From positions 162,244 to 226,243 of the forward strand of contig LFCR01000004.1 of assembly GCA_001189215.1 (NCBI GenBank): DNA of 64,000 nucleotides. The letters run 5' to 3'. Every line of letters starts with the position of its first letter. Position 1 is the stretch's first letter. Source of the DNA: Parcubacteria bacterium C7867-008 (GTDB lineage: Bacteria; Patescibacteriota; Minisyncoccia; Phycocordibacterales; Phycocordibacteraceae). Made by a program: the position numbers and the translations under genes. Below, piece by piece: positions 1-55,183 of this stretch. Below the pieces are notes generated by a model. It searched no databases. It saw only the letters and a program-made list of their open reading frames with translations, and was not told the origin of the DNA.

Positions 1-288
1 CCCATTCGAGTTCTCTATGATTTGGTCTGTGATCAAAACCAGAAAAGGCTCTCTTGTCATCAAGCGCATCTCGCTTGTCAGACGGCGTGTTAGCTCAGGC
101 GCTAATTCTGGTCTGGTTGTGCAATCGAGAATGATTACACGATAATCGTCGTGAGGAAGCATGCACAAAGCATGCGGTACCCCATCTACCACATCGTGTG
201 TGTAGCCTCCTTGAATAATCGCGCTACGAACGGTCCCCAGGTGCACCGCCTTATGGATCGGTCCCTGGTGAATTAGAAGAACTTTCAT
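1..288 (-). CDS. hypothetical protein, 5' portion only (runs off window start). Begins MKVLLIHQGPIHKAV
   Basis: Reverse-complement of 1-288 reads an uninterrupted frame. ATG at 286-288. Not in the ORF track because there is no stop in the window. Backbone-type GC. Confidence 0.4.
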   Translation of the reverse strand, partial: MKVLLIHQGPIHKAVHLGTVRSAIIQGGYTHDVVDGVPHALCMLPHDDYRVIILDCTTRPELAPELTRRLTSEMRLMTREPFLVLITDQIIENSNG

Positions 289-320
289 GTGCTTCCCCAA
301 AATCTGTTTCTAGGATCTGA

Positions 321-908
321 ATGCAGATAATCACAGAACCCAATTTGGGTCAAAAGGGGTATGGCATACTTAGAGAAATGGATGCCGTAAACAACATTGG
401 ACTGCAGGTAACAAACTTTGCTTCAAGCGGCGCAGCAAGCGCTCAGGTATGGGCAGGTAACTTCTTGGCGCTCCTCATCTTGTTCGGGATTATGATTGGG
501 TTTTCCTATAAAGCTGGGCGAGGCGGTATTATCTCGCTTCTTGTAGCGTTTTATGCTGGCTATGCGATTTACTCGCTCTTTCCCTTCACCTCAGCAATCG
601 TGAATGCTGGAGGCACTCCTATCATGAAAGCGATAATCAGTATCGTGATCTATAGCATCTGCACCTATATTCCATTCCATTTCATTCAGCGCCTTACGAC
701 CGGTGGCTTCGGGGTCCTCTCATTTGTCCCACGCTTCGTACTCTCATTCCTTGGCGCAGCATTTCTGCTCGCACTCGGCTATCACGTATTCCACGTGAGT
801 AACATCTATAGTTTCCCAGAACCACTTAATACCGTGTTTGGTCCTGACCAGTATTTCTTCTGGTGGTTCATTGCACCACTCATAGGACTTATATTCCTCG
901 TTCATTAA
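321..908 (+). CDS. polytopic membrane protein, function unknown
   Basis: 195-aa ORF with several hydrophobic helices. Backbone GC. Confidence 0.55.
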   Translation: MQIITEPNLGQKGYGILREMDAVNNIGLQVTNFASSGAASAQVWAGNFLALLILFGIMIGFSYKAGRGGIISLLVAFYAGYAIYSLFPFTSAIVNAGGTPIMKAIISIVIYSICTYIPFHFIQRLTTGGFGVLSFVPRFVLSFLGAAFLLALGYHVFHVSNIYSFPEPLNTVFGPDQYFFWWFIAPLIGLIFLVH

Positions 909-939
909 GACAGGTCTACTGTGGTATAGTCGTCCGTAT

Positions 940-2190
940 ATGGACCTTGCTCAGGAACTCACCGCACGAGGACTCGTTGAACATACTTCAGCGGATCTAA
1001 AGGAAATTCTTGGTACAAAACGTACGGTGTACTTTGGTGTAGATCCAAGCGCTGATTCGATGCAAGCCGGAAATCTTGTGGGCGTATTACTTATGAAGAG
1101 ACTTGCTGACGCAGGACACAAGATTATCTTGCTGGTTGGTGGTGGTACAGGCATGATTGGTGACCCACGAGAAAAGGGTGAACGTCATCTATTAGACCTA
1201 AAGGTTATAGACAAAAACAAAAAAGCAATTAAGGCCCAGATGCAGCAAATCATTGGAAAGAAAGTTTTGCTTGTCGATAATGCTGATTGGTTGTTAAAGG
1301 TAAAGTTGTTTGAATTCCTTCGTGACATAGGTAAGCACTTTACTGTAAACGATCTTATAAAACGAGACATCATAAAACGTCGTCTTGATACGCCAGACGA
1401 AAGTATATCTTTTACTGAATTTACATATGCATTGCTCCAAGGATATGACTACCTCATCTTGAATCAGAAATATAAGTGCGACCTGCAGATTGGTGGCACG
1501 GATCAATGGACGAATATCCTATCGGGAGTAGACCTTATTCGAAAGAAAACTGGTACACAAGCATTTGCATTCTCTACGCCACTAGTAACAGACGCAAATG
1601 GAAAAAAGTTTGGTAAGTCCGAGGGTAATGCGGTATGGCTGGATGCACGAAAAACAGCTCCGTATGCTTTCTATCAGTTCTGGCTCAATCAACCAGATGA
1701 AGTTGTCGAGCGATACTTAAAATCGTACACATTCATGCAAGTGTTAGAGATTGATGCGCTATGTGAGCTACATCGCCGCAACCCAGGACGTCGAGAAGCA
1801 CAGAAGATGCTTGCCCATCAGGTTACTGAAATCGTACATGGTAAAGATGCAGCACTTCGTTGTATTGCGGTATCTGAAGCACTATATGGAGAACGGGAAC
1901 TAAAAACTCTTTCTAAAGAAGAGCAGGCAATGGTACTTGAAGAAGCTCCGAGCCTTTCCATTTCATCTGCAGATCTTTCTTACGGATACACAGTCATTGA
2001 TGCTTTGGTAAATAGCACACTGGCAACTTCTAAATCAGAAGCACGACGTCTCATCGAGGCAAAGGGAGTGACCTTAAACGATGAAAAGATTGATTCAGTT
2101 GAGGCAAAGCTATCCGCAAGCAGCTTCCAGAATGGGTTGGCAATGCTTAAGCGCGGGAAGCAGATCTGCATCCTCACAATTGATAAATAG
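940..2190 (+). CDS. tyrS: tyrosyl-tRNA synthetase (class I). KFGKS motif and C-terminal S4-like domain. HIGH motif degenerate (QAGN)
   Basis: Colinear with bacterial TyrRS over its length (FGVDPSADS..GDP..FLRDIGKHF..LQIGG[TS]DQW..KFGKS..WLD). Confidence 0.9.
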   Translation: MDLAQELTARGLVEHTSADLKEILGTKRTVYFGVDPSADSMQAGNLVGVLLMKRLADAGHKIILLVGGGTGMIGDPREKGERHLLDLKVIDKNKKAIKAQMQQIIGKKVLLVDNADWLLKVKLFEFLRDIGKHFTVNDLIKRDIIKRRLDTPDESISFTEFTYALLQGYDYLILNQKYKCDLQIGGTDQWTNILSGVDLIRKKTGTQAFAFSTPLVTDANGKKFGKSEGNAVWLDARKTAPYAFYQFWLNQPDEVVERYLKSYTFMQVLEIDALCELHRRNPGRREAQKMLAHQVTEIVHGKDAALRCIAVSEALYGERELKTLSKEEQAMVLEEAPSLSISSADLSYGYTVIDALVNSTLATSKSEARRLIEAKGVTLNDEKIDSVEAKLSASSFQNGLAMLKRGKQICILTIDK

Positions 2191-2216
2191 AAGCCTTCCC
2201 GCTATAGTAGGGGAAT

Positions 2217-2303
2217 TGCGTCGGTGGTAGAGTGGTCAATTACAACAGGCTGTAAACCTGTCGGCTTCGGCCTACGAAGGTTCGAATCCTTCCCGGCGCA
2301 CCA
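2217..2303 (+). tRNA. tRNA-Tyr (anticodon GTA), type II with long variable arm, CCA encoded
   Basis: Acceptor gcgtcgg/ccggcgc. Anticodon loop ctGTAaa. T-arm gaagg-ttcgaat-ccttc. Long variable arm. Discriminator A then CCA. Confidence 0.85.
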
Positions 2304-2419
2304 AAAATTAATGAAGAGTGGTAAGCCAAAAGCTTGCCATTTTTCAGTTATATCCTATTATGAATAAGCGACCAGAGGGGTCGTTTTTAGTTGTTTATTT
2401 TGTTCTGGGGAGAACAGCT

Positions 2420-2962
2420 GTGAAGGATGCGTTGTATAACACCAAAGAAGGCCGGACCCGTCTGCTCGATGAACTGACGGCCATCGGCGCCAAACGTGTC
2501 GAACTCGAACGCAAGCGGGGTGAAAATCGTCAGCATACCGGAAGAGGCCATGCTGATGATGATGAGTGTGGTGACCTCGATAACCTGCTCATCTCCTGTA
2601 TCGCCAGACAGGGTGAGATCCAGGACATCTTCAGTGTGACCGGCGGCAATGTTGCTCCGCCGCCGACCAACACCCTGAGCGTCCAGCTCGGCAGTGTCGT
2701 CACGGTGAGGAGGTTTGCCAACGACAGCGACAACAAAGGGGAACTGTACACGTTCCAACTCGTTGGACACGGCGAGGGCATGGCGACCGGTAACGGAGCC
2801 GGCCTGTCTCCGAAGCTTCCGCTGATCAGCTACACTTGTCCGCAAGGTGAAGCGGTCCTGCGGAAAGAAGTTGGGGACGAAGTCGTCGTCAACGGAAAAG
2901 ATCAGGAGATTGTGGCCATACAGCTCCTGAACACCTATCAGGAGCTGCCAATGGCAGCCTGA
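2420..2962 (+). CDS. GreA/GreB-family (Rnk-like) transcription factor paralog, GC-rich foreign-looking cassette
   Basis: C-terminal pattern G..VTV...D....LVG..E....LSP...LISYTCPQGEAVLRKEVGDEVVV matches the GreA C-terminal FKBP-like domain. GTG start 7 nt after GGGGAG. GC visibly higher than neighbours. The in-frame ORF could start as early as 2318. Confidence 0.55.
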   Translation: MKDALYNTKEGRTRLLDELTAIGAKRVELERKRGENRQHTGRGHADDDECGDLDNLLISCIARQGEIQDIFSVTGGNVAPPPTNTLSVQLGSVVTVRRFANDSDNKGELYTFQLVGHGEGMATGNGAGLSPKLPLISYTCPQGEAVLRKEVGDEVVVNGKDQEIVAIQLLNTYQELPMAA

Positions 2963-2984
2963 ACCGCCCAGAAGGGCACTATGT

Positions 2985-3027
2985 GCGCCGCAGATTCGTT
3001 GGGGATCTGCGGCGTTCACTTTTTACT
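2985..3027 (+). terminator. intrinsic terminator after the GreA-like cassette
   Basis: Stem cgccgcagat/atctgcggcg followed by ttcacttttta. Confidence 0.65.
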
Positions 3028-3061
3028 CCATTCTTTATATAGCCTGTGCTATCGTAGATTC

Positions 3062-4015
3062 ATGAACGAAGACAAGCCCGTCCTCCTCTCAGGCATAAAG
3101 CCCACGGGAGAGATCCATATTGGTAACTATTTTGGTGCAATTAAACAGTTCGTTGAACTCTTGAATGATGATTCTCGTCAGGGCTTCGTCTTTATCGCGG
3201 ATTATCACGCACTTAACTTCATACAGGATGCTTCTGAAATGAAGCGTCTCACACGAGATCTTGCACGTGCATACATTGCGTGTGGTCTAGACCCTGAGAA
3301 GGTAGTGTTGTTTAAACAATCTGATGTATCTGCGCACACAGAACTTGCATGGATCTTCGATACCATCACTACCATGCCGTATCTCATGCGTGCACATGCA
3401 TTTAAAGACGCTGAAGCAAAGAATAAAGAAATCGTTGTTGGCACCTTCAACTACCCAATGCTTATGGCAGCAGACATTCTTCTATACGATGCATCGGTGG
3501 TACCGGTAGGGCAGGATCAGAAGCAGCATATTGAGTACGCACGTGATACTGCAGAGAAGTTCAATCGTATCTTTGGTGAGACATTTAGACTCCCTGAACC
3601 GCATATTCTTTCCGACGTTGCGGTAGTACCTGGTACTGATGGTCGCAAGATGAGTAAGAGTTATGGGAACACCATTCCGCTCTTTGCTTCTCGTGAACAA
3701 CTTGCCGACTGCGTCATGGGTATTGTTACAGACTCCGGCAATGATCGCCCTGAGAACGTATATGCCATTCATCGCCTCATTAAGACCGAGGAGGAACTCG
3801 CTCCTGTATACGAAGAACACAAAGGGAAGTACAAGGCATTGAAGGAAGCACTTATCGATGATCTTGATGCGTTCATTGCGCCTATGCGTGACCGTTTTGA
3901 ATCTCTAACAAACGATACAGAGATAGACGAGATCCTTGAAAAGGGTGCTCAGGTTGCGCGCAGCCACAGTGAGCATAAGATGGACACAGTCCGTCGAGCA
4001 ATCGGCGTCCGTTAG
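3062..4015 (+). CDS. trpS: tryptophanyl-tRNA synthetase
   Basis: PTGEIHIGNY and KMSKSYGN motifs. Start set at ATG 3062 (MNEDKPVLL) because the ORF-track start at 2981 lies inside the upstream terminator. Confidence 0.85.
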   Translation: MNEDKPVLLSGIKPTGEIHIGNYFGAIKQFVELLNDDSRQGFVFIADYHALNFIQDASEMKRLTRDLARAYIACGLDPEKVVLFKQSDVSAHTELAWIFDTITTMPYLMRAHAFKDAEAKNKEIVVGTFNYPMLMAADILLYDASVVPVGQDQKQHIEYARDTAEKFNRIFGETFRLPEPHILSDVAVVPGTDGRKMSKSYGNTIPLFASREQLADCVMGIVTDSGNDRPENVYAIHRLIKTEEELAPVYEEHKGKYKALKEALIDDLDAFIAPMRDRFESLTNDTEIDEILEKGAQVARSHSEHKMDTVRRAIGVR

Positions 4016-4028
4016 AAGGAGGTCTTTC

Positions 4029-4250
4029 GTGCCCCAAGAAACATTCACCGGTGAAGACCGGTACAAGCAGCTGGAGCGGTGGCGTGCCGTGATGGCAACG
4101 CGATCTGAAAAGTTCGCCATCCTCGAACACCGCAACAAAGCGGGGACAAGTGATGCTGAACCGACGGTAACCGTCGACTACTTCTTCCCTGAAGATGCCC
4201 CTGTCTCAGACATGCCCTGTCCCACGTGCGGTGGGAGACCCGAAGCCTAG
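4029..4250 (+). CDS. small GC-rich protein (74 aa) with a CPTCGG half zinc-ribbon, unknown function
   Basis: GTG start 7 nt after the strong SD AAGGAGG (4015-4021). GC-rich codons. Own terminator. Confidence 0.5.
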   Translation: MPQETFTGEDRYKQLERWRAVMATRSEKFAILEHRNKAGTSDAEPTVTVDYFFPEDAPVSDMPCPTCGGRPEA

Positions 4251-4272
4251 CGGTTTCGGGTCTTACTTTTAC
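4238..4272 (+). terminator. intrinsic terminator overlapping the stop codon of the small ORF
   Basis: Stem acccgaagcc/ggtttcgggt, loop tagc, then cttacttttac. Confidence 0.65.
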
Positions 4273-4290
4273 ATGCTATTTTAGGAATAT

Positions 4291-5622
4291 ATGGAACGAA
4301 CGCTCATAGGAGAGCTTAGTAGCTCGGCAGGAGAAACAGTCACTATCCAGGGATCGGTAGATGTGCGCCGCGATCAGGGTAAGCTCGTATTCTTTGATTT
4401 CAGAGATCGCACTGGTTCAGTACAGGGAGTGGTCCTTCCTGGGGATGAGGCACTCATGGAGATCGCTAAGTCGGTACGTAACGAGTTCATCGTTAGTGTT
4501 GATGGAATTGTTAACAAGCGTCCAGAAAAGAATATTCAAACAGACAAGCAAAATGGAGACATCGAGCTTGAAATCAAAGGCATCACGGTACTTGCTGCTG
4601 CAGAAGTACTTCCGTTTGAGCTAGACACGGAACTTAATCTCGATACCTATCTCGACTATCTCCCTCTTACTCTTCGCACCAAGCGCGCTCGCGCTATCTT
4701 CAAAGTGCAGTCTGAGATTGCCCGTGCATACCGTGCATTCCTCAATAGCGAAGGATTCACAGAATTCCAGGCACCAAAACTTATTGGTGATGATGCAGAG
4801 GGAAGCGGTGAAGTATTTGAAGTTCCATACTTCTATGGAAAGACAGCACACCTCGCAACAAGTCCCCAGCTCTATAAGCAGATTATGGTGGGTGCCCTTG
4901 AACGAGTATTTAGCATCGGTATTGTATTTCGTGCAGAGAAGCACAGCACCGCTCGCCACCTAAACGAATACACGTCGATGGATGTGGAGATGGGATACAT
5001 CACTGATCATCGAGATGTGATGAAGATGGAGAATCGTCTCATGCAGTTTATCGCTGCTGAACTTACGAAGACCTGTGCAGCAGAGTTCGCTCTTCTTGAA
5101 GCAGAAGTGCCTGTGGTTCCAGATGAAATTCCTTCTATGAAACTCCGTGCAGCACAGGAGCTTATCTTCAAAGAAACTGGGAAGGATAATCGCAATGAAC
5201 CTGATTTAGAGCCTGAAGATGAACGTTGGCTCTGCGAATGGTCTAAGAAGGAGCATGATTCTGATTTCGTGTTTGTTACGCACTACCCAGTATCCAAGCG
5301 CCCAATGTATACGATGGAAGACGAGGCGGATCCTGGCTTCACTAATGGCTTCGACCTACTCTTCCGTGGTGTTGAAATCACCACCGGTGGTCAACGTCGC
5401 CATGAGTACCAGAACCTCGTAGACGGTATCAAGATGAAGGGTCTTGATCCTGAAAAATTCTCGTACTATCTCCAAGCTTTCAAGTACGGCATTCCTCCGC
5501 ACGGCGGATGGGGTATGGGTCTTGAACGTCTTACCGCTAAATTCCTTGGTCTTGCTAACGTAAAGGAAGCAACACTCTTCCCTCGTGACATTAACCGCAT
5601 CGACACTCTACTTTCCGAATAA
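4291..5622 (+). CDS. class IIb aspartyl/asparaginyl-tRNA synthetase (AsnS / archaeal-type AspS-like)
   Basis: N-terminal OB fold. Motifs FRAEKHSTARHLNEYTSMD and GIPPHGGWGMGLERL. Confidence 0.8.
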   Translation: MERTLIGELSSSAGETVTIQGSVDVRRDQGKLVFFDFRDRTGSVQGVVLPGDEALMEIAKSVRNEFIVSVDGIVNKRPEKNIQTDKQNGDIELEIKGITVLAAAEVLPFELDTELNLDTYLDYLPLTLRTKRARAIFKVQSEIARAYRAFLNSEGFTEFQAPKLIGDDAEGSGEVFEVPYFYGKTAHLATSPQLYKQIMVGALERVFSIGIVFRAEKHSTARHLNEYTSMDVEMGYITDHRDVMKMENRLMQFIAAELTKTCAAEFALLEAEVPVVPDEIPSMKLRAAQELIFKETGKDNRNEPDLEPEDERWLCEWSKKEHDSDFVFVTHYPVSKRPMYTMEDEADPGFTNGFDLLFRGVEITTGGQRRHEYQNLVDGIKMKGLDPEKFSYYLQAFKYGIPPHGGWGMGLERLTAKFLGLANVKEATLFPRDINRIDTLLSE

Positions 5623-5625
5623 CAT

Positions 5626-7047
5626 ATGAAACTCGTCTTCTCAAAGAAATCAATAGACGGAGCTCCTAAAACACATATTCGCATTCGTCTTACAGAAGAA
5701 GCACGTGGCACTAAATGTCTCGTGCGCGAAGGAGACCTAACTATTCTTGAGATTGGTGCAGGTAAGGGAAGTGAGATGGATCTGCACAAGTTTGTGACAC
5801 TGTGTCGTGCGATTGTGAACGGAGCAAAACAGCAGAAAGCAAAGAAGATTGTTCTTCAGTTCGATCGAACGCCAGAACTATTTAAGAATCTTCACCACCT
5901 CACACCAGAACAGATCTCGCAGATCGCTGCAGAGAACTTTGAGATGGCTAACTTTGAGTTCCGTACTTTCAAAACAAAACCAAAAGAAGGATGGAGCGAT
6001 ATTGAAGAGATTCTGTTGTGTGGAAAGTCTTCACCTTCGATCGAAGCTGCTGCAAAGCGTGGTCAGGTAATAGGCCAGGAAGTAAATGGATGTCGTGCAC
6101 TCTCAAACACACCCGGAGGTAGCATGACTCCTCGTGGACTCGCTAAGGCAGCGAAACAAGCCGTAACGGATCTTCCGGTAACCGTTCAGACCATGGGACG
6201 CGCTGAAATTGAAAAGTTGGGTATGGGACTACTTGCAGGAGTGGGTGCGGGTTCAAACAATGAGCCAACCTTTACTGTCATGACATACAAGGGAGGTGCT
6301 GCATCTGCTAAGCCAATAGTTCTTGCAGGTAAGGGTATTACGTTTGATTCAGGAGGTCTCAATCTCAAATCTTCAGGAGGTATATATGAAATGCACATGG
6401 ATATGTCTGGTGCTGCATCAGTTATCCATACCGTTGCACTCGCAGCAAAACTTAAGCTGAAGAAGAACGTCATTGGTCTTATTCCTGCCGCGGAGAATAT
6501 GCTTGGAGCGAATGCAACACGCCCAGGTGATATTCATACGTCACTCTCGGGAAAGACCGTGGAGGTTACCAACACTGATGCAGAAGGACGTCTGATACTG
6601 GCTGATGCGATCACGTATGCAAAGAGACTTAAGCCAGCAATTGTAATTGACGTTGCAACCCTTACGGGTGCCGTGATGGGAGCTCTTGGGCTTTATGCCA
6701 GTGGTGTTATGACACGGGATGACAAATTGAGTGATCAATTTAGAAAGCTTGGGGAAGTAAGTGGAGACTACGTGTGGCCACTACCACTGTGGGATGAATA
6801 CGAGGCATGCGTTAAAGGGACGTTTGGTGACCTGCAAAATGTTGAGCTGGGTGGAACTGGACGATACGGTGGTGCAACAACTGCAGGTATGTTTCTGTGG
6901 CAGTTTGCAAAAGAACTTGATTGTCCGTGGGTGCATCTCGACATTGCATCTCGCATGACGAGTGCTCCAGGAGATGAGTTAGCCAAGGGAGCTGCTGGTG
7001 CTCCGGTCCGTCTCCTCATATCATTTATTGATACATGGAACCCGTAA
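5626..7047 (+). CDS. pepA: leucyl aminopeptidase, M17 family
   Basis: NTDAEGRLILADA signature. 473 aa. Confidence 0.85.
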   Translation: MKLVFSKKSIDGAPKTHIRIRLTEEARGTKCLVREGDLTILEIGAGKGSEMDLHKFVTLCRAIVNGAKQQKAKKIVLQFDRTPELFKNLHHLTPEQISQIAAENFEMANFEFRTFKTKPKEGWSDIEEILLCGKSSPSIEAAAKRGQVIGQEVNGCRALSNTPGGSMTPRGLAKAAKQAVTDLPVTVQTMGRAEIEKLGMGLLAGVGAGSNNEPTFTVMTYKGGAASAKPIVLAGKGITFDSGGLNLKSSGGIYEMHMDMSGAASVIHTVALAAKLKLKKNVIGLIPAAENMLGANATRPGDIHTSLSGKTVEVTNTDAEGRLILADAITYAKRLKPAIVIDVATLTGAVMGALGLYASGVMTRDDKLSDQFRKLGEVSGDYVWPLPLWDEYEACVKGTFGDLQNVELGGTGRYGGATTAGMFLWQFAKELDCPWVHLDIASRMTSAPGDELAKGAAGAPVRLLISFIDTWNP

Positions 7048-25640: not shown

Positions 25641-25865
25641 CCATGATCTGCTATGGCATACTCTAATACTTTTGGATAGGAATTTTCATGTCCACCAGCC
25701 GGAGACGGCGTCCATATTGACTCATTAGGAATTTACTGACAGGCTCTTTTTAGATACCCAGTAGTGAGCAGCTGTATGTGCCTGATGTTGTTCAGACGTA
25801 TACAGCTGCTTAAGGCAGCTACTGTAAGGATGTTCCTTACGGTGCACTCCTCAAGGGAGAGCGAG

Positions 25866-26336
25866 ATGAAACGACCGATTACCCTTACCCGTGGACAGCT
25901 GACGGGAATGATCTCAGCCCAGAACGCGGTCTCGTACATGCTCCTAGACACCCAAGATGGGAAAGTCGTGGGAGCCACCCGGAGACAGGTCTGCTGGGTA
26001 GAGCTAAAGATCAGACGCTTTGACGACGTCGCCATGGACCAGAGCGTCCATCACAAACATGTGATGCGCGGCACGATGGCGTATCAGGAACCCGACGGCA
26101 CGTCCATCGAGTTTCGGGTCCTTTCCATCTACACCACCCAGAATCCAACCGGAAAAGGACGGCGTCACAACTGTCCAACGAGTCTGCGGGTTCGAATCAC
26201 CTCACCCTTCGGCAAGCCGGTGGAACGAGGTTTCGAAGCGGGAATGGTCGAAATTTTCAGGACCGGACGCAACTACGAACAGCATCTCGCTGAAGTCCGG
26301 GACATGAGACCCACACCCGAACCAGATAGCTATTAG
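25866..26336 (+). CDS. 156-aa GC-rich protein of unknown function
   Basis: SD AAGGGAGAG before the ATG (MKRPITLTRGQL). GC-rich codons. Terminator 110 nt downstream. Confidence 0.5.
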   Translation: MKRPITLTRGQLTGMISAQNAVSYMLLDTQDGKVVGATRRQVCWVELKIRRFDDVAMDQSVHHKHVMRGTMAYQEPDGTSIEFRVLSIYTTQNPTGKGRRHNCPTSLRVRITSPFGKPVERGFEAGMVEIFRTGRNYEQHLAEVRDMRPTPEPDSY

Positions 26337-29700: not shown

Positions 29701-29778
29701 AAGTATGTGATACTGTGTGTCCGGAACCCGGAATGTGCGATTCCGCGGTACTTCTTTCAAACCGAATAGGTGTTTGTG

Positions 29779-30999
29779 ATGGAAAAGATACTGAACTGGA
29801 TGAAGTTGGCACCCTGCCTACTCATCCTCGCTCTGACGGTCCTTGTGGCCACAGGCGCTCAGGCCAAGGACCTCGGTCCCAATGGCCTGACCAACGCCTG
29901 CACCATCGGGCTGCGGACGCAACTGAACCTCTCCGAGGAACAGGCGCGACAACTGCCCGACGGCTTCGCCGGGAAATACCTCGGCTACGACTTCACGCTC
30001 GGCAAGACACCACCCACCACGTTGTGGGGGTTCTGCGAGATCCTCGTCAAAGATGGGAGATTCTCGCAGGCCAACGTCGGACAGACTTCCGAGCCTGCTC
30101 CGACTCCGGAACCTGCAGCTGCCCTTGAGGCTGCTGCACCGGCTGCCGACCCGCCTGCTCCGGCACCTGAGGTGAAAGCCCCAGCTGCTGAAGCGAAGAG
30201 TGGTGGGGTGACCGTCGAGCTCGAACGGCGTGATCCGGCTCCCGTCTACGGGAAGCCAAACATCTTCGACAAGATGTGGTTTGCCACGCGGGACTTCTTC
30301 GGGTGGGCACGCAACGTGATCGTCAAGCACGAGGTGGTCAGTTCGCTGATTGCCACTCTGATCGCGGTTGCGATCGTGATCATGCTGCTCGCTCTTCGGC
30401 GACCTACGGCACAGTCCGACAATGACGAGCCCGAACCACAAGAAGACAAAGCTGATGGGCAATCCGGACCGATTCCGGCGCGCATCAGCGCTCCAGGCAG
30501 GTTCGCTGGCTTCAGCTACGATGACCTGGCCAGCTATGGCAAACGGTTCAAGAACGTCAAGCCGAAGGGCTTGTTCGAATCCTACGAAAGTCACCTGCGC
30601 CGTCTTCAAGCTGCCGGCCTCGACGTCTCTCACCTCCTCGACGAGGAAGAAGACGGAGATGATGATGCCGACGAGCAACCGCAGGACGATCCCGCTCCCA
30701 CCGCGAGCGACGCTGATCAAGCGCCTCCGGAAGAACCCGGACCCGCAGCACCTGCCACCGCGGCAGATGTACCCGACATGGTAGTGCCACCACTTCCGAT
30801 CGGGCGCCGCTCCAACCTTCCGCTGAGCTCTGAAGATGCAAAAGCGATCAAGGAGCTGAAGGCTATCCATGCCCAGCTGCAAGGCGAGAGCGACCGAGCC
30901 TACACAAACCGTCTTCGGGCGTTGGGTGTCGGCACCGGCCCTCTGGTGGGTACCCACGTCGCGGAACAAATTTCCGACGCCAAGACCTACCGTCCATGA
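29779..30999 (+). CDS. 406-aa GC-rich exported bitopic protein (signal peptide, Pro/Ala-rich linker, one TM, acidic cytoplasmic tail)
   Basis: AGGTG 7 nt before the ATG (MEKILNWMKL). The ORF-track start at 29770 is GTG. GC-rich throughout. Terminator follows. Confidence 0.5.
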   Translation: MEKILNWMKLAPCLLILALTVLVATGAQAKDLGPNGLTNACTIGLRTQLNLSEEQARQLPDGFAGKYLGYDFTLGKTPPTTLWGFCEILVKDGRFSQANVGQTSEPAPTPEPAAALEAAAPAADPPAPAPEVKAPAAEAKSGGVTVELERRDPAPVYGKPNIFDKMWFATRDFFGWARNVIVKHEVVSSLIATLIAVAIVIMLLALRRPTAQSDNDEPEPQEDKADGQSGPIPARISAPGRFAGFSYDDLASYGKRFKNVKPKGLFESYESHLRRLQAAGLDVSHLLDEEEDGDDDADEQPQDDPAPTASDADQAPPEEPGPAAPATAADVPDMVVPPLPIGRRSNLPLSSEDAKAIKELKAIHAQLQGESDRAYTNRLRALGVGTGPLVGTHVAEQISDAKTYRP

Positions 31000-31058
31000 G
31001 CCCTGGCTCATCACACACCCTATTCTGTAGCTGAATAAGCTGCATTCGCACATACAAG

Positions 31059-32042: not shown

Positions 32043-33356
32043 TTATGATCCTGTCGTTAGGAATTGAATCGCGCGATCCATCTGGGGATCTTTCTTAGCA
32101 ATGAAGTCTTCTTGTGTGCGATCGGCCTTAATATCTGGCTGTACGCCGTCATTGGAAATTGAGCGACCGGATGGTGTGAGCCAACGCGCCACAGTAACCT
32201 TGAGTGATGCTTTGCCAATCTTAACGAGCTCCTGTACGGAACCCTTTCCGAATGATCGTGTGCCAATGATAGTAGCCACTTTCTCATCCTGAAGTGCTCC
32301 TGCAAGAATTTCTGATGCTGAAGCTGATCCCTGATTCATGAGAACCACGGTCTGAAGACCAGCAGGGATCCCACCTGACCCACTACTCTTGTGTACGATG
32401 TTCTCCTCATTACCCTTATAGTCTTCAGTAACAATAGCGGTACCGCTTGGAAGGAAGTGGCTACCAATCGCTACGGCGGCATCAAGATAGCCACCGGGAT
32501 TGCCACGTAGGTCGATGATGAGCTTCTTTGCTCCCTTAGCACGCATCTCTTCAAGTGCATCATCAAACAGATCTGCAGAGTTAGCGGTGAATGTATAGAG
32601 CGCGATGGTAAAGATACCGGTCTTTGTATCGTACTCAGTATTGATGGTTGGTACGTTGATAACATCTCGCACCACGGGTATCTCAAGGGTCTTTTCACCA
32701 CGATAGATCGTGAAGGTTACGGTGGTACCCTTCTTGCCACGAATTTGCTGCACTGCCTCTTCAACAGAAATGTTCTCCGTTGATTTGCCATTAATACTAA
32801 GGATAAGATCTCCCGGTACTAGACCTGCGCGTTCTGCTGGAGACTCCTTGAGTGGTGCTATGACCGTAAGAATAGCGTCTTTGGTTAGACCGATCTCCGC
32901 ACCAATACCATCAAAGTTTCCAGCAATGTCTTCCTGAAAGACCTTTGCTTCTTCTGGCGGAAAGAAAGTGGTGTATGGGTCACCGTATGCAGAAGTGAGA
33001 CCTTGAATAGCGCTCCATACAATTTCCTGCTTCGTTGGAGGACTACTTGTTGAGTGTGTTTGTACGAATCGCGTATTGAGTACGTTGTATGCCTTCCAGA
33101 AATCAGCGAAATCTAGCGATTCATCAGGTTCTGCACTGAGTCCGTCTCCGATAAGGGGGATATTCGAGAACACACGAGTGCCACCAGACGCACCCACGGT
33201 GAGACCCGCAGCAAAACCTACTCCAAGAATAAGTACAAAGATAAATGCACGCTGCATCGTACGCGTGAATTTCTTTTGTGCTACTGGAGCAGCATCGAAG
33301 GCAGATTCGTCTTCGGTAAACGGCACTTCATCCATAGCGGCAATGGTAGCATGCAA
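32043..33356 (-). CDS. ctpA: S41 carboxyl-terminal processing protease with PDZ domain
   Basis: PDZ followed by the S41 catalytic region (GNPGG...). Confidence 0.8.
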   Translation of the reverse strand: MHATIAAMDEVPFTEDESAFDAAPVAQKKFTRTMQRAFIFVLILGVGFAAGLTVGASGGTRVFSNIPLIGDGLSAEPDESLDFADFWKAYNVLNTRFVQTHSTSSPPTKQEIVWSAIQGLTSAYGDPYTTFFPPEEAKVFQEDIAGNFDGIGAEIGLTKDAILTVIAPLKESPAERAGLVPGDLILSINGKSTENISVEEAVQQIRGKKGTTVTFTIYRGEKTLEIPVVRDVINVPTINTEYDTKTGIFTIALYTFTANSADLFDDALEEMRAKGAKKLIIDLRGNPGGYLDAAVAIGSHFLPSGTAIVTEDYKGNEENIVHKSSGSGGIPAGLQTVVLMNQGSASASEILAGALQDEKVATIIGTRSFGKGSVQELVKIGKASLKVTVARWLTPSGRSISNDGVQPDIKADRTQEDFIAKKDPQMDRAIQFLTTGS

Positions 33357-35124: not shown

Positions 35125-35586
35125 ATGAAAATTATGCGTTTGAGTGCCACCGATGGCTCGCCATGTGGGGTGATCAATCTGGCTTTCGTACTGGACAACG
35201 TCGATCTGCAAGACGGTCAATACGTCCTGAGTATGCGAGATGAATACCCTTTGGCCTACGTTTCCTACAAAGACGGGACTAAGGCCCATGGTGAAATCTT
35301 CGGGAGTTTCTCCCTGCGCGATGCCCGCGCTCGTCTGCGACCCACGGTTCATAAGGACGGCAGACACATGGTGGAGATCGGGGTCGAAAGCCCGAATGTT
35401 CCTGACTTCCTCGCCCTGTCTGCCAAGATCTATGGTGAGGTTCTTCGGATCCCGATCAGGACCTTCGAGAAGGACCAGGAATTCCCCGGAAACCTAACCT
35501 TCATCGACGGTATCCGGAACGCTCTGGGTCGACTCCGTCGCTACATCGCGGAGCAACTCAAACGCATGCGGCTCATCAGAGCCTAA
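35125..35586 (+). CDS. 153-aa GC-rich protein of unknown function
   Basis: SD AAAGGA 8 nt before the ATG. GC-rich. Own terminator. Confidence 0.5.
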   Translation: MKIMRLSATDGSPCGVINLAFVLDNVDLQDGQYVLSMRDEYPLAYVSYKDGTKAHGEIFGSFSLRDARARLRPTVHKDGRHMVEIGVESPNVPDFLALSAKIYGEVLRIPIRTFEKDQEFPGNLTFIDGIRNALGRLRRYIAEQLKRMRLIRA

Positions 35587-43728: not shown

Positions 43729-43884
43729 CATGAGCATAGTGCCTCAAGGAATGGTTTCTCTCGACGACTGGCTGACGCGATTCATTATCGCAATTGGCTG
43801 CATCGCCCTCGTGTGGACTCCAATATATCTATGGGGTGCATACAAAGAATATCGAGAGCGTGTTCGAAAGAGACCCTCGAAGAA
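43729..43884 (+). CDS. 51-aa single-TM micro-protein (below ORF-track cutoff)
   Basis: MSIVPQGMVSLDDWLTRFIIAIGCIALVWTPIYLWGAYKEYRERVRKRPSKKL. Own terminator. Confidence 0.35.
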
Positions 43885-43900
43885 ACTCTAACCGCCCACC

Positions 43901-43938
43901 GCCCCCGGACATCTGTCTGGGGGTTATCGTTTGTCTTT
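43901..43938 (+). terminator. intrinsic terminator
   Basis: cccccgga-catctg-tctggggg then ttatcgtttgtctttt. Confidence 0.6.
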
Positions 43939-43965
43939 TGACCAACCATACAAATAATTGTATAT
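43937..43965 (+). promoter_or_regulatory. sigma70-like promoter: TTGACC, 17 nt spacer, TATATT
   Basis: Consensus-like -35 and -10 with ideal spacing. SD GAGGA 8 nt before ATG 44004. Confidence 0.55.
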
Positions 43966-44003
43966 TCACAGCGGACGTTTTTCACAACCAGAGGATATGG
44001 TCC

Positions 44004-45875
44004 ATGAGACTCATAGCAATCATCGTGATGCTTCTGTCCATGGTCAACGTGGATGTGAGCTGGGCAAAAGACAAGCCAATCGGCGGCCTCTGTGGAGGCG
44101 CCTATGTCGGCTCCAACACCTGCGTATGGAATGAGGACACTCATGAGTGGACCGAAACATACGTGGGCTGGGACAACTGGGAGTGGCAGACTATCGCCAA
44201 CCAGCCAGAACTTGCTCCGGCTATCCGTCGGATGCATCTCCCCCGGCAGGTGCCGGTTGAGAAGAGATACTCGATCAGTCTGAATACCAAAGCGTGTTTG
44301 AAGCCGGAGTATCATCTCCTTCTCGGCGCTGCGGTTATGCCTTCGAACCGAAAGCCAATTGCGACCACGCGTCGTGTGGTGATCATAAATGTTGAAGGCG
44401 GAGACTGGCCTGAAGAATCCCGCATCTGGCCGCATCTGGGTATCAATTACGTGGGGACGGTCGCAAAACAGGAAGGCTTCGACGTCGTTCTGTACGACGA
44501 GCTTATTCAGAGGCGCAAGCCGCTGGAAGAACTTATTCGTCCCGGCGACATCGTCGGCCTCAGCCTTGTCAGCACCGGCATCGAACGTGGCGTCCTCGTC
44601 GCGCAAGAAGCTAAGGCACTTGGTGCCCGCTACGTTATCGCTGGAAACGACTCGGCGATGTTCCGTGCCCGGCAGCTCCTCGAGCTTCCTGACCGGCCCA
44701 TCGACGCCGTCTTCACCAGCAACAGCGTCGTGACACTCCGGGAGTTCTTCCGAAATGCAGACGCGGTGATCGCAGGTTCGATGCAGATCGAGCAAGTGGC
44801 AACCGCACCTGAACAAGTGCCGTACGTCTCCAACGAACACGCAGGTGTTGCGGTGGAGCGTAAGGCATACACCGAAGAAGACTTCTTCTTGGTCCCAAAC
44901 CTCTCACTCTTCAGCGACGAGTACTGGGAGCTGGTTCGAACTGCGTATCGTTCGCAGTTCGGACACAAGCACCAAGACCCTGCCAACGTCCGTAATGCCA
45001 TCGCGCTTCTTGCGCAAGGCTGTGGACGCGCCGGAATGGGCGATATCTGCGACTACTGCACCATCCGCCATGTGGCGAATGTGGTGCAGCCGCCCCCGGG
45101 GTATCTAGAGGAGACTCTCGCCACCTATCGGGCACAGGGTGTGAATACCTTCTTCAATGTGACGGACTCAGCCTTTGAGATGGGAGTGCTCGCAAAACAG
45201 CTCGAAGAAGCTGGTCCGGTGGACACACTCATCATCTACGGTAGAGCGCAGGCAATCGCGCAGCGTCCAGACCTCCTTGAACGGTGGAAAGGATGTGTGA
45301 CCGAACGTCTGCTCATCAATTGCGGTATGGACTCAGGAAGTGAGCGTATCCTGCAAACCGGCATCAATAAGTCCGGAAGTAAGGTGGGTTCAAGGCTTGA
45401 AGAGAACTATCGGGCGCTGGCCAACATCAAGGCGGCGGGCCCCAAGGTTCACTTGCACTTCTCTGTTATCTTCGGTTCACCGGGAGAGACGCATGAGTCG
45501 TGCGAGGCTACACTGCATTTCGTGCAGCATGCGATCGACACGCTCGGTGAGCAGCTCGACGTCGTCGAGGGCGATATTTTCTGGGTTAACTTCGGAGCAC
45601 CGTGCAGTGAGATCTTCACGGACTACAAAGCAGCACAGAAGCGCGCTCTGCTTGCTGGGAAGAGTATATCCCGGGACGAGTGGCACCAGTACTTCGCCCG
45701 TCACGCTGATGAGCTTGCCGTGCCGGAGGAATCCCAGCACGCCTGGTACACCTTCTTTACGAGCATCACCATCAAAGAGGCGTGGGCGTACAATGCTCAG
45801 GTCCGTGGCATGCTCGAACAACTACCTGGCCACATCACCGGTCGGAACTATGCGTTCAAGCCACCTACGGTGTGA
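44004..45875 (+). CDS. B12-binding-domain radical-SAM-like protein with N-terminal hydrophobic/Trp-Cys-rich extension
   Basis: Rossmann-like B12-binding region (RRVVIINVEGGDWPE..GDIVGLSLVS). Cys cluster CGRAGMGDICDYC (CX8CX2C). GC-rich. Start set after the internal terminator and promoter, not at 43794. Confidence 0.55.
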   Translation: MRLIAIIVMLLSMVNVDVSWAKDKPIGGLCGGAYVGSNTCVWNEDTHEWTETYVGWDNWEWQTIANQPELAPAIRRMHLPRQVPVEKRYSISLNTKACLKPEYHLLLGAAVMPSNRKPIATTRRVVIINVEGGDWPEESRIWPHLGINYVGTVAKQEGFDVVLYDELIQRRKPLEELIRPGDIVGLSLVSTGIERGVLVAQEAKALGARYVIAGNDSAMFRARQLLELPDRPIDAVFTSNSVVTLREFFRNADAVIAGSMQIEQVATAPEQVPYVSNEHAGVAVERKAYTEEDFFLVPNLSLFSDEYWELVRTAYRSQFGHKHQDPANVRNAIALLAQGCGRAGMGDICDYCTIRHVANVVQPPPGYLEETLATYRAQGVNTFFNVTDSAFEMGVLAKQLEEAGPVDTLIIYGRAQAIAQRPDLLERWKGCVTERLLINCGMDSGSERILQTGINKSGSKVGSRLEENYRALANIKAAGPKVHLHFSVIFGSPGETHESCEATLHFVQHAIDTLGEQLDVVEGDIFWVNFGAPCSEIFTDYKAAQKRALLAGKSISRDEWHQYFARHADELAVPEESQHAWYTFFTSITIKEAWAYNAQVRGMLEQLPGHITGRNYAFKPPTV

Positions 45876-51540: not shown

Positions 51541-52032
51541 ATGCGTACGTCTATGAAAGTTTCCTACGGCGTTTTCCCGGGAGATACCTACGCCGTCAAT
51601 GCGCTTACACGACTCCGTGAACTGATCAGCACAGGAACCAGCGAAGGCTCTGCTGCACATCTGTCGGAGTGTCTCATCACAGATTCCGACGACGTCACCC
51701 CAGATATGGTGGTCTTCCTGACACCGAAGAAGCTGGAATTTGCGGGACGATATTTCCGTGTCCTGCAGCTTGCAAACAAGCAATCACAGAATCGGGGACG
51801 ATTCCTGGACCTCGTCCCTGAACACGCACATATAGCAACACGGTTCGTCTTCGTGAACCAGGGAGCCAATCAACTGCAACGCGATCAGCGGACAGGCACC
51901 CTGAAGGCAGATATAGCACTCATGGGTGTTCATGGGACCTTCGGGGGATGCCAGTTGCGACGATCAGCAGTAGCGTCAATGGTAAAGGGTCAACACGACC
52001 GCATGCGACCTCCCTATTTCGTAAGCGTCTGA
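51541..52032 (+). CDS. 163-aa moderately GC-rich protein of unknown function
   Basis: AGGGAGAG before the ATG. Own terminator. Confidence 0.45.
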   Translation: MRTSMKVSYGVFPGDTYAVNALTRLRELISTGTSEGSAAHLSECLITDSDDVTPDMVVFLTPKKLEFAGRYFRVLQLANKQSQNRGRFLDLVPEHAHIATRFVFVNQGANQLQRDQRTGTLKADIALMGVHGTFGGCQLRRSAVASMVKGQHDRMRPPYFVSV

Positions 52033-53891: not shown

Positions 53892-54365
53892 TTACGCTAC
53901 CTTCTCTACGTGATACGTTTGTTTTCCGTTTGGCGTTTCAAAGGTGAAGCTATCTCCCTTCCTCTTTCCCATAAGTGCAGCACCAAGTGGTGATACATGT
54001 GAGAGTTTGTGTGCACGCATGTCTGCTTCTTCAGAGCCGACAATCATGTACTCGTGCATATCAGAACCACCATCTTTCTTGATGACTACTGAAGAACCGA
54101 ATCCCACAACATCCTTCTTCTTACCGTCAGTGACGATCTTTGCACGCTTTACGAGCTCTTCGAGTTTACGAATACGTTCTTCTGTTGCCGCTTGGAGATC
54201 GCGCGCCTCCTGATACTCTGCGTTCTCAGAGAGATCTCCAAGTGAACGAGCGTATTCAAGATTTTTTGCAATTTCAGTACGACGAACGGTCTTAAGGTTT
54301 TCGAGTTCCTTAACCATCTCGTCGAACTTCTCTTGGCTGACCATTGTTTCTTGTTCAGTCATCAT
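53892..54365 (-). CDS. greA: transcription elongation factor GreA (backbone copy)
   Basis: Canonical GreA N-terminal coiled coil (GDLSENAEY) and C-terminal domain. Backbone codon usage. Confidence 0.85.
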   Translation of the reverse strand: MMTEQETMVSQEKFDEMVKELENLKTVRRTEIAKNLEYARSLGDLSENAEYQEARDLQAATEERIRKLEELVKRAKIVTDGKKKDVVGFGSSVVIKKDGGSDMHEYMIVGSEEADMRAHKLSHVSPLGAALMGKRKGDSFTFETPNGKQTYHVEKVA

Positions 54366-54475: not shown

Positions 54476-55183
54476 TTATTGAGGGTTGGCGAAGGCCAGC
54501 AGCTTCCGCTCGTCGAGGTTTCGAACGACGAAAGTCATATCGTCGGGACCAATCGGTCCCGTGCCGGCAATCTTCTTCACGATAATATTCCATTTCCCTT
54601 CGTAGGGTCGGAGAATGCCGATACAGTCTTCATCCTTCCCTGTGTCGAGAAAGAAGTACGTCGGCTCGTCCGTCGTGTTGATCGAGAGAGGCAGGTCGCC
54701 GGTCAGAGCATGCAATGCCATCGCTTCGGCTTGCGCGAGCGTGAGCGTATAGCCGAGAGCTCGCACCGTCTGTCCAAACGGCATATGAAAGGAAAGCTCT
54801 CGAAACCCGGGAAGCTGTTCGGCGATCTGACGAAGATTGGATCTCTCCGTCAGACGCAACTTTGTGCCGATGCAGACGTTTGAACTCGACTGGCGTCCAG
54901 AGAACTGGGTTGCGGAAATCGATCGCTGCAGCCATGAATCTCCCACGCAGCATTCGGCGGTGTCCTTCTCCACGGTGTCAGGAATATAGAAACATCCCTG
55001 AGTCGTGAAGCGAGACGGTTCACGATATTTCTCGATCAGCCGTTCGAGCTCCACATCGAAGCCGTTCTTCCTTCGGCGAATGTGGTCCCCTTGGCGTTTG
55101 TTCAGGCCCTTGAGAAGTTTGGTCAGGGTGTCATGAAGCTCGCGCTTCGTGTTTCCGGACGCATTAACCTTACGTTCAAGCAT
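54476..55183 (-). CDS. 235-aa GC-rich protein of unknown function
   Basis: GGAG 9 nt before the ATG. GC-rich. Terminator downstream. Structured leader upstream. Confidence 0.5.
   Translation of the reverse strand: MLERKVNASGNTKRELHDTLTKLLKGLNKRQGDHIRRRKNGFDVELERLIEKYREPSRFTTQGCFYIPDTVEKDTAECCVGDSWLQRSISATQFSGRQSSSNVCIGTKLRLTERSNLRQIAEQLPGFRELSFHMPFGQTVRALGYTLTLAQAEAMALHALTGDLPLSINTTDEPTYFFLDTGKDEDCIGILRPYEGKWNIIVKKIAGTGPIGPDDMTFVVRNLDERKLLAFANPQ

Follow-up and report, generated by a model that had tools for sequence, protein, structure and literature searches.

A Divergent Gre-Family Paralogue in the tRNA-Tyr/trpS Slot of Patescibacterial Genomes

Gene Content of the Locus

We analyzed a stretch of 64,000 nucleotides from Parcubacteria bacterium C7867-008 (contig LFCR01000004.1, positions 162,244 to 226,243 of the forward strand), which is called the window below and whose first letter is position 1 of all coordinates given without a locus number. 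Our subject is a Gre-like gene at 2420-2962 on the plus strand, with a GTG start at 2420, a TGA stop at 2960-2962, and 180 codons before the stop; "GreL" is a name coined in this analysis for its product. The gene is part of the conserved block tyrS - tRNA-Tyr - Gre-like gene - trpS - aspS - M17 peptidase - ScpA. The upstream anchor of the block is tyrS (940-2190, plus strand), followed by tRNA-Tyr with anticodon GTA (2218-2303, plus strand; called by ARAGORN and scored at 59.6 bits by Rfam RF00005), near-identical in the related locus L001. The steady downstream partner of GreL is trpS (plus strand, 3047-4015 including an extended -10 element, ATG at 3062), as read from tblastn synteny and from the gene tables of L083, L085, L089, L091, and L092, and aspS (4291-5622) follows it. 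The canonical greA of the window (53892-54365) encodes a protein of 157 amino acids with a GDLSENAEY tip that matches PF01272 with 81.5 bits and PF03449 with 79 bits. As the original prediction held, it has backbone composition, with a GC content at third codon positions (GC3) of 0.43, but it lies on the minus strand.

The GTG start of GreL is backed by homologues that begin MKG... or MSK... at the aligned codon and, as had been predicted, the gene has a Shine-Dalgarno sequence of its own, read as GGGGAG at 2407-2412 on the plus strand, 7 nucleotides before the start. GGGGA or GGGAG occurs at the same position in the leaders of its relatives. The ratio of nonsynonymous to synonymous substitution rates (dN/dS) was 0.33-0.43 against two homologues, with dS close to saturation, and dN was about three times that of the adjoining housekeeping genes. 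Long open reading frames (ORFs) are present on both strands, an antisense one of 210 codons occupying 2387-3019, and this, together with the very fast divergence of the gene and its loss in several relatives, might be taken to mean a decaying or spurious ORF in a GC-rich stretch. That explanation is effectively refuted by the Pfam match on the plus strand, the conserved start codon and Shine-Dalgarno sequence, intact orthologues in many lineages, a confident structure model, and a nonsynonymous difference (pN) of 0.34 in the plus frame, below the synonymous difference (pS) of 0.63. The gene is real and under purifying selection.

GreL as a Two-Domain Gre Homologue

The original prediction read 2420-2962 as a second Gre-family paralogue with a GreA-type C-terminal domain and a divergent N-terminal coiled coil, a reading that a profile search without a significant Gre match would have overturned. 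The search gave the opposite result. The Pfam model of the GreA_GreB C-terminal domain, PF01272, matched residues 87-163 of GreL with E 1.4e-7 and 31.9 bits, above its gathering score of 26.9, and GreL relatives scored 22-41 bits on the same model. The divergence of the N-terminal half was also borne out, since PF03449 (Gre N-terminal) gave no match to GreL at E<=1 and none in nine relatives at E<=0.1. The NCBIfam models for GreA and GreB scored GreL at 14-27 bits against cut-offs of 139-188; the best equivalog score, 27.4 bits on the GreA model NF004973 (cut-off 159), and the 14.2 bits on the GreB model TIGR01461 (cut-off 171) both fell short.

A search of the PDB sequences with the single GreL protein returned spurious matches only. 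A profile of 20 divergent family members matched the same sequences far better, reaching E. coli GreA (1grj) at E 6.6e-18 over the full length (residues 2-163), Gfh1 at E ~1e-16, GreB at E 2e-13, and Rnk at E 3.7e-5 over the C-terminal domain only. An hhalign comparison with 18 canonical GreA sequences gave a probability of 99.5 across residues 2-169 of GreL. The AlphaFold model built on a 47-sequence alignment had a mean predicted local distance difference test score (pLDDT) of 91 and a predicted template modelling score (pTM) of 0.83, and placed helices at residues 9-40 and 48-74, a loop at 41-47, and then a beta-rich domain. The antiparallel coiled coil spans residues 9-74 (2444-2641, plus strand) and the beta-rich C-terminal domain residues ~84-168 (2669-2923, plus strand). 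Foldseek aligned this model with GreA 1grj (template modelling (TM) score 0.80, root-mean-square deviation 2.9 A), GreB 2p4v (0.77), and RNA polymerase-bound Gfh1 in 3aoh/3aoi (0.75-0.76). In the modelled structure, GreL is a full-length, two-domain Gre homologue with a coiled coil as long as that of GreA.

By domain and fold, GreL belongs to the Gre superfamily, and by its tip motif, N-terminal model, and equivalog scores it falls outside GreA/GreB proper. Two other identities were ruled out. The original prediction had offered an Rnk-like regulator as one possibility; the modelled GreL coiled coil is full length (9-40, 48-74), whereas Rnk aligns over the C-terminal domain only. For DksA/TraR, which combine a coiled coil with a C4 zinc finger, no such Pfam match was found, and a Gre beta domain makes up the C-terminal part. 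PHROGs, PADLOC, and a viral structure library gave no phage or defence match for GreL.

The Coiled-Coil Tip

In the hhalign columns, the tip of the GreL coiled coil reads G-R-G-H-A-D-D-D-E (residues 41-49, 2540-2566, plus strand), with a mean pLDDT of 74 for residues 41-50. The canonical G-D41-L pairs with G41-R42-G43, after which five residues, H44-A-D-D-D48, are inserted, and GreA E44 aligns with E49 of GreL. It had been proposed to look here for the conserved acidic tip residues, and the outcome was divided: the equivalent of E44 is kept, while the D41 position holds Arg (Asn in P0002), N45, A46, and Y48 of GreA pair with C, G, and L, and both the SENAEY context and the GDLSENAEY motif are gone. 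All five members of the close subfamily have E49 and D54, and at least two acidic residues directly precede E49 in each of them. In GreL itself, the acidic residues D46-D48 of the insertion might act as substitutes. The N-terminal domain and tip of the family evolve very fast. The C-terminal motif (I/L)S..(S/C)P.G.A(L/V)..K..GD, by contrast, is kept in the GreL family according to hhalign, and most of the motif IS..SP.G.AL.GK..GD of GreA and GreB is preserved.

These features bear on whether GreL could be a bona fide GreB-like transcript-cleavage factor with a specificity different from that of GreA. With E. coli GreA and GreB (1GRJ, 2P4V; PF03449 + PF01272), GreL shares a size of 160-180 residues, the full-length fold with its coiled-coil length and beta domain, the Glu at E44, and the C-terminal binding motif; the invariance of E49 and the acidic residues before it also fit such a role. 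It differs from them in its lack of a PF03449 match, in the Arg or Asn at D41 and the other lost tip residues, in a tip loop longer by five acid-rich residues, in an insertion of 9 residues that the closest subfamily has in its C-terminal domain, in an Ala-Ala tail, in scores far below the equivalog cut-offs (27 bits against 159), and in its fast dN. Moreover, Gfh1 and Rv3788 keep acidic tips and yet inhibit transcription and compete with GreA, so that an acidic tip is insufficient for cleavage (PMC4598747). We consider the cleavage-factor explanation unlikely.

The Same Slot in Related Patescibacteria

Related loci were recovered by a TyrS search, in which the best match was 75% identical ("Parcubacteria group bacterium RYN_391") and which placed the organism among Patescibacteria of the Parcubacteria/Paceibacteria type. 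The order tyrS - tRNA-Tyr - gap - trpS - aspS is kept in ~20 relatives, with tRNA-Tyr found 3' of tyrS in 20 of the loci compared. The slot X of tyrS - tRNA-Tyr - X - trpS - aspS holds a Gre-like gene, 20-55% identical, in at least 11 other patescibacterial loci from related lineages. The most similar is that of L001 (55%), where the contig ends just past the gene and trpS is out of view, followed by L003 (49%). L005 and L013 also have a Gre-like gene in the gap between tyrS/tRNA-Tyr and trpS, as do L085-88, L089/90, L091, and L092/93 (contigs of P0004, P0005, P0021, and P0008). Two loci carry tandem Gre-like genes upstream of trpS, L015 (11188-11748 and 11953-12462) and L083 (265-819 and 1021-1539); in both pairs the Ala-Ala tail is confined to the first copy, whose N-terminal half is very different. 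Wherever the downstream neighbor could be read, the Gre-like gene was directly upstream of trpS.

L006 (10118-10363) and L008 (9839-10123) contain ORFs of 81-94 amino acids that consist of the Gre C-terminal domain only and match PF01272 with 33 bits, above threshold. These truncated forms end in AAA and keep the leader hairpin described below. If functional, they would attach to the rim of the polymerase but fall short of its active site. GreL is absent from nine relatives, in which tblastn shows no remnant.

The family is also rare. An exhaustive search of 1.84 billion representative proteins gave 22 matches at E<=1e-3 and 3 at E<=1e-10, and the non-canonical matches that were looked up are positional orthologues of GreL. 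With ~20 representatives among so many proteins, the GreL subfamily is essentially missing from annotation.

The region after tRNA-Tyr, mostly the gap to trpS, is a cargo hotspot in the relatives L006, L011, L017, L019, and L021. Large serine recombinases are encoded downstream of tRNA-Tyr in L019 (9692-11098, minus strand) and L021 (7347-8912, minus strand), and other cargo lies at L006 7597-9696, L011 8486-10027 (minus strand), and L017 7788-9965 (minus strand); it includes an S8 subtilase that also carries a peptidoglycan-binding domain and, beside MurB, an unusual HTH(XRE)-MurA fusion. In relatives that have extra cargo next to a Gre-like gene, the subtilase and the HTH-MurA and MurB genes among it, the cargo lies on the tRNA side, and the Gre-like gene stays beside trpS and not beside the tRNA.

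Two further observations concern these loci. The public gene call of P0021 at L091 (2306-2845) is probably 42 nucleotides late, as a GTG at 2306 after GGGGG restores the N-terminal G-R-x-x-L of the family. An ORF of 200-270 codons between tyrS and tRNA-Tyr is present in L003 (7312-7965), L009, L010, L011, and L018 and is not found in the window; the L003 copy, the sole one scanned, has no Pfam match.

Recent Insertion or Long-Standing Resident

The gene had been described as GC-rich, placed just after tyrS-tRNA-Tyr, foreign in codon usage, and inserted there. The last of these was a reading of the data and not something observed. Position and composition were as described, with a GC content of 0.573 and a GC3 of 0.66, against GC/GC3 values of 0.43/0.37 for tyrS, 0.47/0.46 for trpS, and 0.48/0.45 for aspS; most long ORFs in the window have a GC3 of 0.34-0.51. 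This excess is not peculiar to the window, as GC3 exceeds that of the flanking genes in 14 of the 16 family genes by a mean of +0.10, and reaches its highest values where genomic GC is lower (+0.24 in L013, +0.23 in the window). Because the excess is shared across the family, GC is no mark of recent foreign origin in this genome, and of the foreign codon usage only the atypical composition stands. Candidate causes of the anomaly are an exchange of alleles between related lineages, selection acting on the mRNA, and, for an accessory gene, weak selection on codons.

On a recent horizontal acquisition, a foreign Gre-type cassette would have integrated beside tRNA-Tyr in this genome. Several facts fit such an event: the contrast of GC3 with the flanks (0.66 against 0.37-0.46); the variability of the tRNA-side site in relatives, with its recombinases, subtilase, and MurA/MurB; five further GC-rich, mostly orphan islands in the window; and a synonymous difference between the window and L003 that is lower for GreL (pS 0.63) than for tyrS (0.85) and trpS (0.81), in comparisons close to saturation. 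In addition, the pairwise identities of GreL are out of step with those of TyrS (Spearman 0.02; L005 and L092 are 0.81 identical in TyrS and 0.29 in GreL), so that the GreL gene may have been replaced by homologous exchange between related lineages at the locus. The identity comparison is, however, uninformative on vertical versus lateral history, with TyrS identities spanning just 0.64-0.81 and GreL near saturation.

Against recent acquisition stands, above all, the finding of the same divergent family in the same slot, beside trpS wherever this could be read, in at least 11 related lineages. The raised GC3 is common to the family, other genomes included, and the architecture of leader and terminator is conserved with relatives. 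No integrase, recombinase, or transposase ORF was found in window positions 1-6000, and the 3' end of the tRNA is not repeated downstream of GreL; the lack of phage, defence, and viral structural matches points the same way. We therefore regard recent acquisition as improbable, and the claim of an insertion as a recent event found no support. As judged from gene order across the clade, GreL is a long-standing occupant of the tRNA-Tyr/trpS slot. For genome scans, the locus is a caution that a GC-rich gene beside a tRNA need not be a recent insertion, as it is not here.

Transcript Signals and the Ala-Ala Tail

The tRNA-Tyr unit is closed by a terminator, a 15-base-pair hairpin with a U run at 2312-2346 on the plus strand (-20.2 kcal/mol, z -6.3). 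An equivalent of different sequence folds in L003 (z -7.6), and similar inverted repeats are readable from the sequence at this position in L001 and L013. The 3' arm of the hairpin carries the -35-like TTGCCA of a predicted GreL promoter, TTGCCA-16-TATTAT (2334-2361, -10 at 2356-2361, plus strand), which had 10 of 12 matches in a consensus scan. A -10-like hexamer, picked by eye, is present at the matching place in all 14 related leaders. In the window, a leader hairpin of 8 base pairs with a loop of 5 (2366-2386, plus strand; -10.0 kcal/mol, z -3.2; flagged terminator-like) begins 5 nucleotides past the -10 and is followed by a U-rich tract (2387-2406). A GC-rich hairpin 1-9 nucleotides past the -10-like hexamer, then a U-rich tract, Shine-Dalgarno sequence, and start codon, recur in 14/14 loci with unrelated stems; against dinucleotide shuffles the leader hairpins, in hand-picked windows, gave a Stouffer z of -10.6.

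The leader hairpin would lie at or near the 5' end of the GreL mRNA, where hairpin and U-rich tract may act as a 5' stabilizer or as a promoter-proximal attenuator, two readings that are equally good. That the inverted repeat is instead a DNA operator fits less well, as its variable loop (3-12 nucleotides) and unrelated stem sequences suit an RNA element better. Rfam detected no known RNA family in the GreL leader or trailer, neither GraL nor a T-box. The GraL leader of E. coli is the promoter-proximal terminator upstream of greA (PMC2836576, PMC6829880), and the GreL leader shares with it a hairpin and U-rich tract between the promoter and start codon of a Gre-family gene. In contrast to GraL, the GreL hairpin would begin at about +1 and yield an RNA of ~25-30 nucleotides, and has no sequence or Rfam similarity to it. 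As a side observation found in the window only, and not conserved in relatives, the U-rich tract can pair with the Shine-Dalgarno region (AGUUGUUUA ... GAGAACAGCU, 2388-2420), a second structure that could mask the ribosome-binding site.

Just past the stop codon, a small hairpin, GCCC-AGAA-GGGC (2966-2977, plus strand), is conserved in L001 and L003 by alignment and fold. The unit ends, as had been predicted, with a terminator of its own: an intrinsic-terminator-like hairpin of 13 base pairs (8 G-C) followed by TTCACTTTTT at 2985-3015 on the plus strand (-33.5 kcal/mol, z -4.8). A hairpin of different sequence folds at this place in L003, and similar inverted repeats are readable there from the sequences of L005, L015, and L083. 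With a promoter-like site, leader hairpin, Shine-Dalgarno sequence, and terminator, GreL is predicted to be a stand-alone transcription unit.

The protein ends in Ala-Ala (...ELPMAA; the two codons are at 2954-2959, plus strand), which closes an otherwise unalignable tail. An Ala-Ala end is found in 11 of the 17 family genes at the locus, compared with 2 of 49 in the protein set P0030-P0078, where canonical GreA-like matches predominate. The endings MAA, NAA, KAA, LAA, VAA, and AAA all occur (for example ...PMAA, ...ANAA, ...QLAA, ...KVAAA, and ...GLAA), and both truncated forms are among the carriers. In E. coli, ssrA-type C-terminal degrons are recognized by ClpXP, and by its resemblance to these the Ala-Ala tail is possibly a degron.

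The window also encodes an S41 peptidase with PDZ domains of the tail-specific, or C-terminal processing, type (32043-33356, minus strand). Such proteases read non-polar C-termini and act outside the cytoplasm in known cases, for which reason this one, probably extracytoplasmic and without a link to the Ala-Ala ending, was set aside as a reader of the tail.

Proposed Role of GreL

Secondary-channel factors form a small toolkit that tunes the catalytic center of RNA polymerase. GreA, GreB, and DksA are comparatively well understood; the roles of Gfh1, Rv3788, and Rnk are not. The explanation that we find the most convincing, and hold to be likely as a whole, is that GreL is a lineage-specific, fast-evolving Gre paralogue, a secondary-channel factor that would modulate or compete with the canonical GreA of the genome. 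In this model, the C-terminal domain with its conserved motif would dock at the secondary-channel rim in the manner of GreA, GreB, and Gfh1, and the 65-residue coiled coil would reach the active site of RNA polymerase. There, the remodelled acidic tip (E49 kept, Arg at D41, the HADDD loop, no SENAEY) would be expected to change catalysis or to act in competition with GreA, much as Gfh1 or Rv3788 do, which would set GreL apart from a plain duplicate of GreA. Tight control of the amount of GreL is suggested by its leader hairpin and its Ala-Ala tail.

If GreL is such a Gre factor, we lean toward a modulator or inhibitor; a cleavage factor with altered properties seems appreciably less probable, and some other activity at the polymerase is a rather unlikely third case. 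A modulator is favored over a cleavage factor because Gfh1 and Rv3788 inhibit despite acidic tips and because a canonical GreA is present here. According to a review (PMC4598747), small-genome bacteria often have GreA as their sole factor of this kind.

Comparison with known proteins suggests, by analogy, that GreL works most like the group of Gfh1 (Thermus/Deinococcus; 2EUL, 3AOH) and Rv3788 (M. tuberculosis), which inhibit RNA polymerase and compete with GreA. Like them, GreL has a full-length Gre fold and an acid-rich, non-canonical tip and shares its genome with a canonical GreA, and the profile of the GreL family reaches Gfh1 and GreA about equally well. It differs from Gfh1 in having no specific sequence affinity to it past the shared family, in its patescibacterial lineage and fixed genomic slot, and in the model, whose domains have the GreA-like orientation and not the flipped one of free Gfh1 (TM 0.36-0.40 to 2EUL/2F23/2ETN). 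Rnk of E. coli (3BMB) is also a secondary-channel binder and shares the Gre-type C-terminal domain with GreL, but in this protein of ~136 residues the coiled coil is much shorter than that of GreL and cannot reach the active site (111 aligned columns, TM 0.35). Archaea have TFS4, which is a paralogue of the cleavage factor TFS1 and acts as an inhibitor (PMC5715097). It follows the same evolutionary logic as GreL, a cleavage-factor paralogue with a changed tip that is kept beside the canonical factor, but as a TFIIS-type zinc-ribbon protein from another domain of life it is no relative of GreL and offers an analogy only.

Several points weigh against the secondary-channel reading or soften parts of it. 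Binding of RNA polymerase by GreL is something that we infer from homology only. The canonical GreA sequences were within the AlphaFold alignment, so that a Gre-like fold was partly to be expected, and a model made with a two-sequence alignment, left out of the fold comparison, was poor (pLDDT 41.6), with a helical hairpin nonetheless. The alignment of the tip is uncertain, HMMER and hhalign placing the loop gaps differently. The promoter and transcription start were assigned by consensus alone and the hairpin windows chosen by eye, and the degron reading of the tail leans on its resemblance to tags recognized by ClpXP in E. coli. Finally, several relatives have neither the gene nor a remnant of it, which indicates that GreL is dispensable.

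Another explanation would take GreL away from the polymerase altogether, its Gre domains having been recruited to translation, in the regulation or assistance of TrpS or TyrS or in tRNA metabolism. It is suggested by the position beside trpS, wherever this could be read, within a block of aminoacyl-tRNA synthetase genes, and would be compatible with the very fast evolution of the N-terminal domain and tip and with the retention of the C-terminal domain alone in some lineages. However, the promoter-like site of GreL and the strong terminator before trpS make co-transcription unlikely, the conserved residues are those conserved in Gre factors, and gene order is widely conserved in such small genomes without functional meaning. 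A literature search gave no known precedent. We judge a translation role to be very improbable.

The secondary-channel reading can also be taken further. The anti-Gre role raised in the original prediction, or a regulatory role more generally, is possible for GreL. A bolder version makes GreL a clade-wide anti-Gre or DksA-like regulator under attenuator and degron control, whose place in the tyrS - tRNA-Tyr - trpS - aspS block would stem from a part in coupling transcription to tRNA charging or amino-acid supply and whose divergence would be owed to co-evolution with the polymerase or to conflict; this we put forward as speculation with little probability.

A group of streamlined Patescibacteria with small genomes has retained, at a constant chromosomal position and through divergence down to 20-55% identity, a second Gre paralogue that is remodelled, and such retention argues that the protein is useful and distinct. 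With its natural tip variants, C-terminal-domain-only forms, and tandem pairs, the subfamily offers material on the determinants of cleavage versus inhibition. The locus is of moderate interest to those who work on secondary-channel factors or on Patescibacteria and is otherwise ordinary.

Other Features of the Window

A promoter-like TTGATA-17-TATAGT at 2180-2218 spans the tyrS stop codon and is kept in L001 and L004. With its -10 ending 9 nucleotides ahead of where mature tRNA-Tyr begins, it would give the tRNA almost no 5' leader. In front of trpS, an extended -10-like TGC TATCGT (3047-3055) ends 6 nucleotides before the ATG, and there is no Shine-Dalgarno sequence. The same element is found in L003, L005, L013 (7 nucleotides before the ATG), L015, and L083, with spacing and sequence kept. 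This conserved extended -10 so close to an ATG lacking a Shine-Dalgarno sequence suggests that the trpS mRNA is leaderless.

The spacer between trpS and aspS (4016-4290) has a GC content of ~0.55 and a small ORF (3936-4250 frame) ending ...DMPCPTCGGRPEA; unrelated small genes occupy this position in L089 and L083. Other GC-rich islands of the window, with a GC3 of 0.55-0.70 against 0.34-0.51 for the backbone, lie at 25764-26336, 29770-31053, 35125-35586, 43794-45875, 51541-52032, and 54476-55183. Their proteins are mostly orphans without a Pfam match, the exception being 43794-45875, which has weak B12-binding and radical-SAM matches. This last island adjoins tRNA-Glu, and the one at 54476-55183 adjoins the canonical greA.

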